From positions 1 to 42,451 of the IMG/VR virus record IMGVR_UViG_3300005259_000079: 42,451 nt of DNA; one strand, given 5' to 3'. Of this stretch, positions 15,465-26,889 are shown piece by piece. Source of the stretch: a virus (taxonomy: Duplodnaviria; Caudoviricetes). The notes under the pieces were generated by a model that made no database searches, was not told the DNA's origin, and was given only the letters and a program-made list of their open reading frames with translations. Numbering within the stretch: position 1 is the first letter of the stretch; each line of letters opens with the position of its first letter. The translations under genes were made by a program, and so were the position numbers.

Positions 15465-15599
15465 GGCCCTTTTCTTGCTTTGAAAAATGTAAAAACTTTT
15501 CTATATGACATAAAAAAAAATAATTTGCAAATTTTGCTTGATTTTCGAAATTTTTTGGTGTAGATGTCTTATCCAGTTAGTTGATCTTTGTATTTATCA

Positions 15600-20367: not shown

Positions 20368-23091
20368 ATGGCAGAAGAAACAAAAAATCCGTTAGCCCCT
20401 ACCGACGAAATCGCTACCCTCGAAAAGGATATCGAAATATTTTCAGGGTGGATCAAGCGCCTGGAAAATCCCGACCCCGTCCTGCGCAGCGAAGCGGCTG
20501 GAAAAGGCATTAAACTATACGACGAAGTGGACCGCGACGCCCATGCGGGCAGCGTGCTACAGCAGAGAATCATGGCCGTAGTTGGCAAGGAATGGCAAAT
20601 TCTTCCGGCCAAATCCGCGCGAAAGGCTGGCCGTCCCGCTTCCACCACACAGGAACAAACTATCGCCGAATTCGTTTCGAACGTTTTGTCGACGTGCAAT
20701 TTTGACCAGGCGCGGCAGGAACTGCTCAAGGCCATCCTCTATGGACATTATGAAGCGGAAATTATTTGGCAGGCAGAAAAAGACAGCAATGTCCAGAATT
20801 CAAGCCTGCGAATCAAGAAAATCATCGGCAAACATCCGCGCCGTTTCATCTTCACCGCCGAAAGAGAATTGCGCCTGCTGACCCGCAATAACATGATCGA
20901 AGGCGAATCCATTCCGGACAGGAAGTTTTTATCCTTCGGATATGGCGATTCCGACAACCCCTATGGTTGCGGCCTGGGAAGGCGTTTGTGGTGGCCGGTC
21001 TGGTTTAAAAAGCACGGCATCAAATTCTGGATGATCTTCCTGGAAAAATTCGGCATGCCCACCGTCGTCGGTAAATACCCCAGCGGCACCCTGCCCAAAA
21101 AGCAGGAAGAATTGATGGCCGCTATCAATGCCATCCAGACCGATACCGGCGTTAAAATACCCGAAACAATGGATATCGACCTGCTGGAAGCCACCAGGGC
21201 GGGCACTGTCACGCATGAGCAGCTCTGTGAGTATATGGACCGGCAGATATCCAAAGCCGTCTTGGGCCAAACCGCATCCACAGACGGCACACCCGGTAAA
21301 CTCGGCAATGACCAAAACCAGAGCGATGTTCGGCAGGAAATTGTCGAAGCCGACGCCGATCTGCTCGATAGCTACACAAACGAAACCCTGATCCGGTGGA
21401 TTGTCGACTTTAACTTTCCCAACGTAACCGCCTATCCTACAATTAAGACTTTCGCCAACGCCAAGCCGGATCTGACCGCCCGCGTAAGCGTAGACAAGAC
21501 TTTGGTGGTCGACATCGGCCTCCCGGTCGGCAAGTCATATTTTTACGAAACCTATGGCATCCCCGAACCTGCCCCCGGAGAAGACCTGGTCGAAGTGCGG
21601 CAATTATCCGCCTGGCCCAGCGATTCCTCCGGCGTCATTCCCGCAAAGGCGGGAATCCAGCAAGGTAAGGAATTCGCCGAAGGCGACTCCACTGACGTAG
21701 CCGACTATCTTGCCGCCGAACTGGCCGCCGCCTCTATGCCCAATACGGACGCCATGATGGTTCGGCTCAAAAAACTGACTGGCAGCGCCAAGTCCCTGGA
21801 AGATCTGCGCGACGGCATTATCGATATTTTTTCAGACATGAACCCGGCGGATCTGGGCAATACCATCGCCCGCGCCATGATGCTGGCCGAAATGTCCGGC
21901 CGTTATGAAGTTGCCGACGAAACCGGCATCTTGCAGGAAAAAAAAAGCCCGAAATTCGCTGAGGGCATAGCGCCATCGTTGATGGCCGTCTTTAAACTTC
22001 CGTTTAAAGAGCAGGAAAAGTTCTTTCAAAACAAGCTGAATATTCCGACCGAAAAATGGACGGACCTCTGGAAAGACCTGCACGCCAAAGGCTTCATGGT
22101 CGCAGGCGCATACAAAGCGGAATTGCTGACCGATTTCAGAGGTGTGGTGGACAAAGCCATTACCCAGGGCACCACGCTTGCCGACTTCCGGAAAGACTTT
22201 GACCGCATCGTCTCCCAGCACGGCTGGAGCTACAACGGCAGCCGCAACTGGCGCAGTGAAGTCATCTATTCCACCAACATCCGCACCGCTTATGCGGCAG
22301 GTCGCTGGGAGCAACTTCAGGATCCGGATATCATCAAAGCTTATCCGTACCTGGAATACCGCCACGGCGACAGCAAAAAGCCCCGCCCGCAGCACTTGGC
22401 ATGGAACGGCCTGGTCCTTCTCCGCGATGACGACTTCTGGAAAACGCATTATCCGCCCAACGGCTGGGGATGCAAATGCAAGGTCATCGCCGCCACAAAG
22501 CGCGACCAGAAAAAAGCGGCGGAAAACGGGAAAACCGAAGCGCCACCGGAGAAGATCGACAAGAAAACCGGCGAACCGGCCGGCATCGACAAAGGCTGGG
22601 GATATAATGTGGGTGCAGCGGCAGAGGAAAACGGTTACCGGGTGCTGGTGGATAAATTCGAAACGCTGCCTAACGATATAGCCCGCAAATGGATGGCGTC
22701 TTATGTGAACGAACCGGCGTTCGAGCGTTTCATATCCGGAGAAATCAAGGGCGAATTCCCTGTGGCGGTCATGGATGAACAAACGCAAGAAGCCATCAGT
22801 GCTCAGGCGCAGACGATATGGCTAAGTGATGAAACGCTGACTGAGCACTTAAAAAGACACCCGGAAATCGGCCTGGATCAATACAGGCTGCTGCCGGAAA
22901 TCATTAACGACGGCGAAGTCTACAAGCAAGGCGATGTAAAACTGATTTATTTGTGGCGCGACGGGAAACTCTATCGCGCAGGCGTCAAAAGAACTCGGGA
23001 CAAAAGCGGAAACTACATTCTGACGCTGTTTGAAACAACAGACAAAACGGCGCTGAAAAACGTAAGGGGAAAATATGAAAGGATTCGTTGA
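20368..23091 (+). CDS. Fused portal (Mu gp29/DUF935) + MuF (gp30) head protein + C-terminal PBECR-type putative RNase
   Basis: Portal motifs NPYG.GL, FLEKFGMP..VGKY, ISKAVLGQT to about aa 520; MuF motifs LPF.EQ..FF..K, YSTN.RTAY.AGR, RPQH.AW.G, YPPNGWGC.C; C-terminal H..RHPEI....Y..LP.II..G...LTLF. Confidence 0.88.
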   Translation: MAEETKNPLAPTDEIATLEKDIEIFSGWIKRLENPDPVLRSEAAGKGIKLYDEVDRDAHAGSVLQQRIMAVVGKEWQILPAKSARKAGRPASTTQEQTIAEFVSNVLSTCNFDQARQELLKAILYGHYEAEIIWQAEKDSNVQNSSLRIKKIIGKHPRRFIFTAERELRLLTRNNMIEGESIPDRKFLSFGYGDSDNPYGCGLGRRLWWPVWFKKHGIKFWMIFLEKFGMPTVVGKYPSGTLPKKQEELMAAINAIQTDTGVKIPETMDIDLLEATRAGTVTHEQLCEYMDRQISKAVLGQTASTDGTPGKLGNDQNQSDVRQEIVEADADLLDSYTNETLIRWIVDFNFPNVTAYPTIKTFANAKPDLTARVSVDKTLVVDIGLPVGKSYFYETYGIPEPAPGEDLVEVRQLSAWPSDSSGVIPAKAGIQQGKEFAEGDSTDVADYLAAELAAASMPNTDAMMVRLKKLTGSAKSLEDLRDGIIDIFSDMNPADLGNTIARAMMLAEMSGRYEVADETGILQEKKSPKFAEGIAPSLMAVFKLPFKEQEKFFQNKLNIPTEKWTDLWKDLHAKGFMVAGAYKAELLTDFRGVVDKAITQGTTLADFRKDFDRIVSQHGWSYNGSRNWRSEVIYSTNIRTAYAAGRWEQLQDPDIIKAYPYLEYRHGDSKKPRPQHLAWNGLVLLRDDDFWKTHYPPNGWGCKCKVIAATKRDQKKAAENGKTEAPPEKIDKKTGEPAGIDKGWGYNVGAAAEENGYRVLVDKFETLPNDIARKWMASYVNEPAFERFISGEIKGEFPVAVMDEQTQEAISAQAQTIWLSDETLTEHLKRHPEIGLDQYRLLPEIINDGEVYKQGDVKLIYLWRDGKLYRAGVKRTRDKSGNYILTLFETTDKTALKNVRGKYERIR

Positions 23092-23190
23092 ACGTGTGCG
23101 GGATCGGCAACTATCCCCGCTTCGCACTCATCATCCGGAATCCCGGAAGGTGTCGGCAGCCTGTGGCCGAAACGCGTCAACAAATCCTTT
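23078..23190 (-). ncRNA. Candidate ~113-nt structured small RNA behind the MuF-nuclease gene
   Basis: Closing stem 23078-23097/23172-23190 enclosing three hairpins; starts about 7 nt downstream of a minus-strand -10 box. Confidence 0.6.
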
Positions 23191-23812: not shown

Positions 23813-25012
23813 ATGAATTTCAAAGGTTTTGATGACTGGATTCCTATTTTCCGTGGCGGCAAGCAGATTGACTCTGCAGGCCATGATCACGATGGCGATG
23901 CCCTGATTGAAAAGGCGCTGGCCAAGTTCAACACGGCAACACACGAACCCCCCGCCTGTGTCGGCCATCCGGAAGACAATAAGCCGGCCTATGGGTGGGT
24001 TGAAGGGCTCAAAAAAGGCAAAGATAAGCTGGGAACAATCCTGCTGGCCAAATTCAAGCAGGTTGAACCCACTTTCGGCCAAATGGTCAAGGAAGGCCGG
24101 TTTAAAAAGCGCAGTTCCGCTTTTTATCCCGATGGAACCCTCCGGCATGTCGCTTTTCTGGGGGCCATGCCTCCGGCGGTTAAGGGTCTGCCTGACGTTG
24201 CTTTTGCCGAAGGCGAAGCGGCCAGTTTCGAGTTTTCCGAAGAATATGCATTGAATTCAATAGCAGATTTATTCCGTAACATGCGGGAATGGCTGATAGA
24301 AAAATTCGGCCAGGATGTCGCGAATAAAATCATCCCGGATTGGCAAATTGAAGGTTTGAGGTCGGCTGCAGATGATGAGGCCGACGAATCCCAAAACACA
24401 TCATCAACAGCAATTTATTCCGATAAGGAGGATAACCCTATGACGTTTAAACAGAAATTAGAGGCTTTTTTCAGCGAATTACTGAAGAAAATGCCGGACG
24501 ACGGCCCCGGATCCACCACAACCACCACCCAGGGCAAGCAGTTTTCCGAAGCCGACCTGGAGAGGGTCAAAAGAGAGGCGGCAGACGCCGAACGCGAAAA
24601 AGTGACCGCAGAATTCAACGAGAAGGCGAAAAAAACTCGCGAGGACGGCCTCAGGGGAGAGATTTCCGCATTTTGCGACTCATTAGTCGCTCAGGGACGC
24701 ATTTTGCCCGCCACGGTCAAATTTGGGCTTCCGGAAATCCTTTTTGCCCTGGGGCAGCGGGAAGAAACAATCGAATTTGGAGAAACAAAAGAAAAAGCAA
24801 CCGTTTACGACCGTTTTAAGGCGCTCCTGTCCGCAGCCAAGCCCCTGGTAGCCTTCAGCGAGATCGCTACCAGGGACAAAGATGCCGGCGATACCGGGCA
24901 TGATCAGCGCGAGCAGGCTATCCAGAAATACATGGAGACAAACAAGGCCGACTACAAAACAGCCGTCCTGGCTGTCTCTAAAGATCAGCCGGCATTATTT
25001 TCCGAACGATAA
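23813..25012 (+). CDS. Prohead protease with nested scaffold (internal start 24440), Mu gpI/Z-like organisation
   Basis: WI.IFR.G, VGHP....PAYGWV..L, FKKRS, LRHVAFLGA.PPAVKGL; AAGGAGG SD before in-frame ATG 24440. Confidence 0.88.
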   Translation: MNFKGFDDWIPIFRGGKQIDSAGHDHDGDALIEKALAKFNTATHEPPACVGHPEDNKPAYGWVEGLKKGKDKLGTILLAKFKQVEPTFGQMVKEGRFKKRSSAFYPDGTLRHVAFLGAMPPAVKGLPDVAFAEGEAASFEFSEEYALNSIADLFRNMREWLIEKFGQDVANKIIPDWQIEGLRSAADDEADESQNTSSTAIYSDKEDNPMTFKQKLEAFFSELLKKMPDDGPGSTTTTTQGKQFSEADLERVKREAADAEREKVTAEFNEKAKKTREDGLRGEISAFCDSLVAQGRILPATVKFGLPEILFALGQREETIEFGETKEKATVYDRFKALLSAAKPLVAFSEIATRDKDAGDTGHDQREQAIQKYMETNKADYKTAVLAVSKDQPALFSER

Positions 25013-26557: not shown

Positions 26558-26809
26558 ATGCCCAAATATAAAGTCAAAGACGGTGCGTTTATCCAGCACG
26601 ATGGAAAAGCATACGGGCCGGGCGATATCCTCACCGCCACCGAAGAACAGGCCGAATTGCTGTCCGTTGAGGAACTGCCCGCGGATGAAGAAAAATATGC
26701 GGATATGACCAACAAGGAACTGATCGCAGCATTAACCGCAAAGGGAATCGAAATCCCGGCAAAGGTTACAAAGGCCGCGCTGATCGACCTGCTGGCCAAC
26801 GCCAAATAA
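26558..26809 (+). CDS. Small head-associated protein with C-terminal HeH/LEM-like motif
   Basis: Y.V....I.HDGK.Y.PGD; MT.KEL...L..KGIE.P....KA.LI.LL; SD GAGGT. Confidence 0.75.
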   Translation: MPKYKVKDGAFIQHDGKAYGPGDILTATEEQAELLSVEELPADEEKYADMTNKELIAALTAKGIEIPAKVTKAALIDLLANAK

Positions 26810-26815
26810 AGCGAA

Positions 26816-26863
26816 ATCCCGCCGATTGTGGCGGGATCATGCCGGACTCGGCACCCGGCATCT
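26816..26863. repeat. Tandem palindromes (ATCCCGCC/GGCGGGAT and ATGCCGG/CCGGCAT)
   Basis: Direct inspection; related CTCCCGCC/GGCGGGAG hairpin at 26488-26509. Confidence 0.55.
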
Positions 26864-26889
26864 GATGAGCAGCCGAAGAGGTATTAACA

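Follow-up and report, generated by a model that had tools for sequence, protein, structure and literature searches.

An adenine run at the portal/MuF junction of Mu-like phages, a probable programmed slip site

The virus record IMGVR_UViG_3300005259_000079 (Duplodnaviria; Caudoviricetes), analyzed over its full length of 42,451 nt and referred to here as the window, encodes a Mu-like portal protein and MuF in one 907-aa open reading frame (ORF), with a run of nine adenines (A9) at the joint. The run and its fixed length, the reading frames on either side of it, missing MuF start codons, nearby stops, and an F-A-E motif recur across related phages. Dozens of these phages conserve the run, largely at junctions where MuF lacks its own start, which makes a built-in slip site the likely explanation. 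The site is real and conserved, and it is probably a programmed slip site, a known type of recoding in a new setting; the preferred reading, held at a probability of roughly 0.6, is that RNA polymerase would, most likely, slip there by adding one A.

Through slippage at A9, two products would come from one gene, the portal-MuF-RNase fusion of 907 aa and a plain portal of 531 aa. For most relatives, the portal would be read from the unslipped message and the fusion from the slipped one; in the window's lineage an indel outside the run would have flipped the frame, making the fusion the default and leaving slipping to restore the plain portal. Both products would co-assemble in the 12-mer portal ring and, once the mixed ring is inside the prohead, the prohead protease would cut MuF free at F-A-E, a putative cut site. 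Such an arrangement would serve to bring in MuF chains, and any C-terminal cargo attached to them, in metered number, in the way that Gag-Pol brings in Pol. The features concerned, all on the + strand, are as follows.

20368..23091, +: portal-MuF-C-terminal domain ORF, a stop-free in-frame fusion of 907 aa (ORF and domain matches)
20512..21561, +: core of the portal (aa 49-398, Pfam Portal_Mu at E 3e-99), with matches to the Mu-type portal structures 9khx and 8rka
21673..21681, +: first F-A-E motif, aa 436-438, preceding the portal helical tail; candidate prohead-protease site, with F436 invariant in nine fused proteins
21938..21946, +: A9, the probable slip site, in GAA AAA AAA AGC
21955..21963, +: second F-A-E motif, aa 530-532, between the run and MuF; candidate MuF release site
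21960..21962, +: TGA in the -1 frame, the end of a 531-aa stand-alone portal (one extra A or a -1 shift)
21968..21970, +: TAG in the +1 frame, the end of a 533-aa product (one A lost)
21972..21986, +: 6-bp hairpin over the in-frame ATG at 21982, forming in 4/4 fused loci
21994..22623, +: MuF domain (aa 543-752, from KLPF on), within which Pfam Phage_Mu_F matches aa 590-707 at E 4e-15
22624..23088, +: C-terminal domain, aa 753-907, predicted to be an RNase of the BECR fold (PBECR-like)
23089..23190, +: non-coding element, conserved and structured, after the C-terminal domain; candidate RNA antitoxin or decoy
23813..25012, +: prohead protease/scaffold gene, 399 aa, containing F[AS]E six times and proposed to encode the processing enzyme

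An earlier account made from the letters of the window (the sequence-only reading) had described portal and MuF as one ORF with A9 at their junction, and both the domain matches and the sequence agree. The shifted ends it gave are reproduced when the run is read as A10, which ends at TGA 21960 after 531 aa, or as A8, which ends at TAG 21968 after 533 aa.

The run and its frames among relatives

Loci were gathered by portal or MuF protein queries and three DNA patterns, giving 314 sequences with the window included. Of these, 218 contained the end of the portal together with the start of MuF and gave 120 distinct junctions; the other 96 were dropped (78 with no MuF, 11 with an unaligned MuF start, 6 with no portal, and 1 with the portal far away). 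An A9 or A10 run lies within the portal 3′ end in 30 of the 120 junctions (28 A9 and 2 A10). MuF follows in the -1 frame in 26 of these and is fused in frame in four (the window, L088, L041, and L042), and 21 of the 26 have no ATG, GTG, or TTG from the run to MuF. The remaining 90 junctions have no run of at least 8 A there, and comprise 89 split genes in which MuF has its own (coupled) start and one run-free fusion; a locus flagged as start-less by the script (L216) has a TTG just before its A7 and is counted among the 89. Typical split loci have a portal C-terminus of KKKA or KKKV followed by the stop, with TAA in the MuF frame immediately 5′ of the run, and in many loci a stop stands one codon past the run.

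AAA makes up 38% of the Lys codons in these genes (426 of 1,122) and none of 21 conserved Lys columns is all-AAA, so the run is not a codon habit; away from the junction, 243,690 nt of related portal/MuF coding sequence contain five runs of at least 8 A. Two scans with linker patterns containing AAG returned 48 loci, none of them a portal/MuF junction, and 17 of 18 matches to the A9 pattern were such junctions. The linker behind the run is evidently translated in the MuF frame, because 27 of 30 linkers with a run contain F[AS]E after it, as against none of 39 close relatives in which MuF has its own start, and because a 42-nt insertion in the L001 linker preserves the frame. The base before the run is T in 22 of 30 loci and G in all four fused loci. 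GGT precedes the run in 20 of 25 phase-0 loci, though it accounts for just 40 of 400 Gly codons.

Four loci nested in the A9 clade (L004, L149, L068, and L130) have regained a MuF start, and their run, which now lies after that start, is decaying (A9, A9, broken, and A7, respectively). A set of 23 loci from one bacterial order contained no new run-bearing junction. Of four cultured phages checked by hand, only Rhizobium phage RR1-B has a run at the junction; in HS6, phiSHP3, and Lsp-JY19 the run is lacking and the start is an ordinary coupled one.

RR1-B, reached by a protein search of cultured phages, opened a second, alphaproteobacterial clade of 25 loci and 21 distinct junctions (three loci were duplicates and one lacked a portal). 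In RR1-B, A9 lies near the portal end and the -1 frame encodes the portal helical tail, F-A-E, and MuF. The run is present in 21/21 junctions of this clade (19 A9, 1 A10, and 1 A8), further upstream than in the first clade, such that the site in phage RcapMu comes before the portal's helical tail and that in the window after it. MuF is in the -1 frame without an ATG in 18 loci and fused in three, and codon phases vary, with A9 in phases 0 and 2 and A10/A8 in phase 1. Cultured members are RcWaterboi (A9, MW677528 19118-19126), RcapMu (A8, NC_016165 19934-19941), and RR1-B (A9, NC_021557 16660-16668). For the small gene immediately preceding the portal (L365:353), the RcapMu record also carries the remark "potential -1 frameshift."

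Both clades together hold 51 run-bearing junctions, of which 47 are A9, 3 are A10, and 1 is A8; MuF is in the -1 frame in 44, in frame in seven, and in the +1 frame in none. Some relatives keep both the A-run and the in-frame fusion, a check that the sequence-only reading had proposed. That reading had also allowed for shifts of either -1 or +1; the direction is always the one that a -1 shift or one added A would give, and the +1 alternative is never seen.

By its frames, the window appears to be a minority form with the layout inverted, the fusion being made by default; the common state is split genes with MuF in -1 (44/51). The same G-A9-G fusion is found in independently assembled contigs (L088, L041, and L042, three copies), and full-length fusions P0002-P0009, among the 120 best protein hits, have the linker as in the window, six of them, including P0003, P0004, P0006, and P0009, reading E-K-K-S. 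In a tree of 82 sequences (six short ones omitted, root arbitrary), the four nearest to the window, L088, L042, P0003, and P0006, are all fused (support 0.984); other fusions (P0002, P0004, P0007, and P0009) and own-start loci are scattered among the -1 loci. Fused and split loci have equal run length, with indels outside the run. A peptide-pattern scan for further fused loci found three, all already in the set.

Identical codons occur at only 52-65% of conserved residues, yet all seven in-frame fusions with DNA, spread over both clades, keep A9. A -1-frame stop follows 4-13 nt after the run in 7/7 (background 0.21 for 13 nt) and a +1-frame stop 21-49 nt after it in 7/7 (background 0.45). The three alphaproteobacterial fusions are 57-63% identical and use AAA at a third of their Lys codons, and all keep AAA AAA AAA. 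For the window's clade, the empirical chance of E-K-K-S staying slip-compatible in three loci is ~0.014 (9/23 x 15/30 x 15/30 x 2/14).

A separate fusion group (L022, L177, P0014, P0034, P0061, P0092, P0093, and P0106) has no A run and tends to have F-x-E at the joint. Six portals of ~700 aa (P0057, P0058, P0059, P0068, P0081, and P0083) continue beyond F-A/S-E into an extension of another kind, which has a PPYHP-x-C motif at its end and is probably a fusion to another MuF-like domain.

Proposed transcriptional slippage and its rivals

Transcriptional slippage is favored by a run length of nine in 47 of 51 junctions regardless of phase. Nine A or T is the known threshold for such slippage, and A_AAA_AAG is a better ribosomal heptamer in E. 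coli than A_AAA_AAA (PMC5009743); A_AAA_AAG is not used in the portal frame. As in genes known to use slippage, a homopolymer of at least nine is conserved beyond codon need and stops lie close by in the non-zero frames. The sequence-only reading had proposed a mix of plain portal and portal-MuF subunits, and that proposal gains from a run of fixed length in 51 junctions, from MuF genes that are mostly startless, and from stops 4-13 nt away, the slippage itself being deduced from these comparisons.

The same two products could be made by -1 ribosomal frameshifting on A_AAA_AAA, an account judged unlikely. According to Antonov et al., a single shift direction among orthologues predicts ribosomal rather than transcriptional shifting (PMC3711429), and with 44/44 split loci in -1 and none in +1 the rule assigns these junctions to ribosomes; the stop one codon after the run, the heptamer that the RcapMu A8 still contains, and small hairpins 3′ of the run in the window would fit as well. 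The heptamer needs just seven A, yet 47 of 51 runs are exactly nine long and the runs stand in three different phases, and A_AAA_AAA is the poorer ribosomal site of the two. The relatives have no conserved structure 3′ of the run (mean z -0.69 vs -0.80 for the control, with an empty consensus fold) and no conserved upstream Shine-Dalgarno (SD) stimulator or SD spacing at the run. Frameshift sites of the G/GT type can do without stimulators, so a missing stimulator does not exclude a ribosomal mechanism.

Several other observations weigh against programmed slippage by the polymerase or against parts of the mechanism built on it. The loci are mutually related and their run counts overstate independence, and the base of the A9 clade has weak support (0.685). 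A possible start follows the run in 5 of 26 split run-bearing loci of the first clade, and 13 of 18 alphaproteobacterial -1 loci have some GTG or TTG. The RcapMu run is A8, the A_AAA_AAA heptamer lies inside every run in any phase, and in the window itself the 64 nt 3′ of the run fold well in one of two tests, at z -3.2 versus z -1.6 when a different stretch was taken. Run-free fusions exist (L177, L022, P0014, and P0034), and metering is therefore not required for portal-MuF fusion. What points to F-A-E as a cut site is enrichment.

The run-free fusions, also described in PMC7302621, lend some weight to an improbable alternative in which the window's lineage has a hard-wired fusion, every portal carrying MuF until the protease cuts and A9 being a relic of a slipping ancestor. 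The fused clade is nested among slip-type loci, and only four fused loci with DNA are available in the window's clade, for which the chance estimate is about 0.014-0.024. A9 is nevertheless kept in 7/7 fusions of two clades despite the codon divergence at conserved residues, -1-frame stops fall within 13 nt in all seven, and where MuF has regained its own start, as in the four loci described above, the run decays. Phase variation at the DNA level, with gain or loss of an A in replication switching MuF on and off between phage genomes, is very improbable and was rejected as the main mechanism: poly-A does slip in replication (PMC3711429) and fused and split states both occur among close relatives, but the run is nearly invariant in length, the two states differ by indels outside it, and the "off" state would be the rule (44/51) although the MuF frames are intact.

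Scarcely credible, and likewise rejected, is an assembly error in the homopolymer (a true A8 or A10), or MuF made from the ATG at 21982. That ATG is present in 4/4 fused loci; it is in frame, as is a TTG at 21979, and, as the sequence-only reading had noted, it has no SD at a usable distance, the nearest GAGG (21961-21964) ending 17 nt upstream. It also sits in the 3′ arm of a conserved hairpin. An error of assembly is contradicted by the recurrence of G-A9-G in the three independently assembled contigs and by the E-K-K-S linkers of P0003, P0004, P0006, and P0009. Polymerase slippage at A9 remains the preferred reading.

Probable release of MuF, its C-terminal cargo, and the downstream element

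MuF probably enters as part of a fusion and is set free afterwards, because the Mu portal tail is absent from the virion, F[AS]E is enriched, and F-x-E recurs at run-free joints. The Mu portal is found in the virion without its last 124 residues, a loss ascribed to the prohead protease (PMC11915804). F[AS]E occurs six times in the 399-aa protease/scaffold of the window versus three times in 6,859 aa of 26 other proteins, and in relatives 194 times in 25,138 aa (73 protease ORFs) versus 42 times in 25,780 aa (69 terminases). The window's F-A-E motifs at 436 and 530 flank the portal tail. The sequence-only reading had placed the cargo at the DNA exit vertex; a cargo that stays attached there was considered and rejected, given the absence of the Mu portal tail from the virion and the F[AS]E that follows the run in 27/30 loci, and MuF probably does not stay on the portal.

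The C-terminal tip (aa 753-907) is predicted to be an RNase, an identity weakly shown. Its model, with a predicted local distance difference test score (pLDDT) of 85, consists of a helix followed by four to five strands, and its best fold matches have middling Z scores: BrnT at Z 6.4 (root-mean-square deviation 2.8, 74 aligned), CdiA-CTs at Z 5.1-5.6, and colicin D at Z 4.5-4.8. A Foldseek search of the tip against the PDB gave no match at E 0.001, and PHROGs gave none for the tip. The match to PBECR1 (E 0.009) scored 16.9 bits against a curated cut-off of 27.6, with homologue P0007 at 25.2 bits. In 12/12 homologues His831 is invariant and position 886 is Thr or Ser. The PBECR active site has a His at its N-terminal helix plus a Thr/Ser in strand 4 (PMC5512222; bioRxiv 10.64898/2026.08.28.747851), which His831 and Thr/Ser886 of the modeled tip would fit. 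The structural check that the sequence-only reading had suggested thus gave a BECR-like fold with matching residues, together with a PBECR1 score below cut-off and middling Z scores. A full-length model of the 907-aa protein had a mean pLDDT of 35.9 and was not used.

The tip is swappable, with five C-terminal families and a short form among the MuF proteins of relatives, and the fused relatives L041, L042, and L088 lack a C-terminal domain, their proteins stopping 3-5 residues past MuF. The slip site would therefore serve MuF and not the toxin as such, which departs from the sequence-only reading of a toxin-loading site, and the RNase tip appears to be optional cargo. In eight loci (L043, L044, L050, L052, L075, L077, L113, and L145), MuF is extended at its C-terminus by 525-540 aa, and a short intergenic element is lacking.

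Directly after the window's ORF there is no protein immunity gene; a 143-nt gap is followed by a gp31-like gene. An element of ~100 nt (23089-23190) in this gap is conserved in 10 loci with this tip family (e.g., L003:6685-6791, L051, L098, L100, L110, L117, and L121). In nine aligned copies, 8 of 24 pairs have changes on both sides, a value reached in 0/500 shuffles, with the structure derived from the same alignment. Rfam gave no match for 23089-23190. Different elements accompany other tip families; where MuF has no tip, such an element is missing or the gene overlaps the one after it. The element is a candidate RNA antitoxin or decoy.

The surrounding genes form a Mu-like head module in the order Mu transposase, B ATPase, gp27, terminase, Portal_Mu, MuF, gp31-like, and protease, and the window also carries genes for the capsid and a contractile tail. 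Among named relatives, those closest to it are prophages found in deltaproteobacterial genome bins, including Smithella and Syntrophus. A promoter and terminator scan around the junction found no excess over shuffles and none on the + strand. Only two A9 runs occur in the whole window, the other, at 15512-15520, being intergenic and before the lysis genes. A hammerhead type II ribozyme lies at 26809-26878 (+), between two late genes after the capsid gene (Rfam RF02276, 53 bits). Short palindromic elements, presumably akin to REP/RPE-type repeats, are inserted in frame in the portal linkers of the window (21634-21660), L001, L088, and P0006, and encode VIPAKAGIQ, VIPWLDQGI, and SPFSKGGLRG.

Significance and comparison with known systems

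If programmed slippage is true, the portal gene joins a short list of phage genes with programmed recoding, the arrival of MuF in the head in few copies and without a start codon is explained, and the annotated ends and starts of many Mu-like portal and MuF genes are wrong; gene callers would not see the in-frame form. The device would also exist in cultured phages of a genetically tractable host, making slippage, copy number, and the role of MuF directly testable. New elements are the retention of the site by the in-frame form in two clades, its phase independence, the putative F-A-E release motif, and the cultured test systems. A broader picture is offered tentatively, as possible though doubtful in its entirety: a Gag-Pol-like device in which A9 RNA-polymerase slippage would join a counted fraction of portal subunits to MuF and a swappable cargo, the prohead protease would release them at F-A-E, the site would occupy two portal positions in two clades, a one-base indel outside the run would switch lineages between a minority and a majority of fusion and so retune the dose, and the RNase would be checked by a structured RNA.

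The literature searched, which did not extend to supplements or to the original RcapMu paper (Fogg et al.), holds no account of recoding at the portal/MuF junction. The word "portal" is absent from the first 300,000 characters of PMC5009743 and from the main text of PMC3711429, and no slip site at the junction is mentioned in the accessible portions of PMC2628397, PMC8705779, PMC4378225, and bioRxiv 2021.08.04.455094. The closest remark is in the RcapMu record NC_016165, which notes a short portal, a "possible +1 frameshift would allow readthrough," and a MuF without a good ribosome-binding site. It is a remark on a single genome, with neither site nor conservation in the text shown, and the frame count made here is -1 at A8.

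Portal-MuF and portal-MuF-PBECR fusions have been published (PMC5512222; PMC7302621), and MuF polymorphic toxins share with the window a MuF beside or fused to the portal (PMC5576092; PMC5512222; PMC7302621), interchangeable C-terminal domains, and a tip of BECR fold that has His and Thr/Ser. The accessible portions of those three papers describe no slip site for them, and what comes next in the window is a structured non-coding element, not a protein immunity gene. In SPP1, gp7 has its own gene, and few copies enter the head by binding the portal (PMC6316719; PMC5576092); the slip site here would achieve this covalently.

Lambda G/GT, T7/T3 gene 10, and SPP1 17.1/17.1* likewise make a short and a C-terminally extended protein in fixed ratio from adjacent morphogenesis genes (PMC5009743; PMC6316719). 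They are ribosomal and concern a tail chaperone, capsid, or tail tube, with no portal named in the portions of those sources that are accessible, and in portal-MuF, unlike in these, an entire cargo protein forms the extension and is probably removed by cleavage. Retroviral Gag-Pol also loads a minor component at a set ratio as a fusion that the viral protease releases (PMC5009743); the likeness is one of analogy, as the present case involves a double-stranded DNA phage, a portal carrier, and a homopolymer site. The nearest match to the window's arrangement is tau/gamma of Thermus thermophilus dnaX, where the long product lies in one ORF with a run of nine and stops nearby in both other frames, and where the same oligomer's short subunit, about half of the product, comes from slipped transcripts (PMC5009743). 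The dnaX products form a clamp loader, whereas here a phage portal ring would be built, most relatives have the inverse layout of two ORFs, and slippage is proposed from comparison of sequences.

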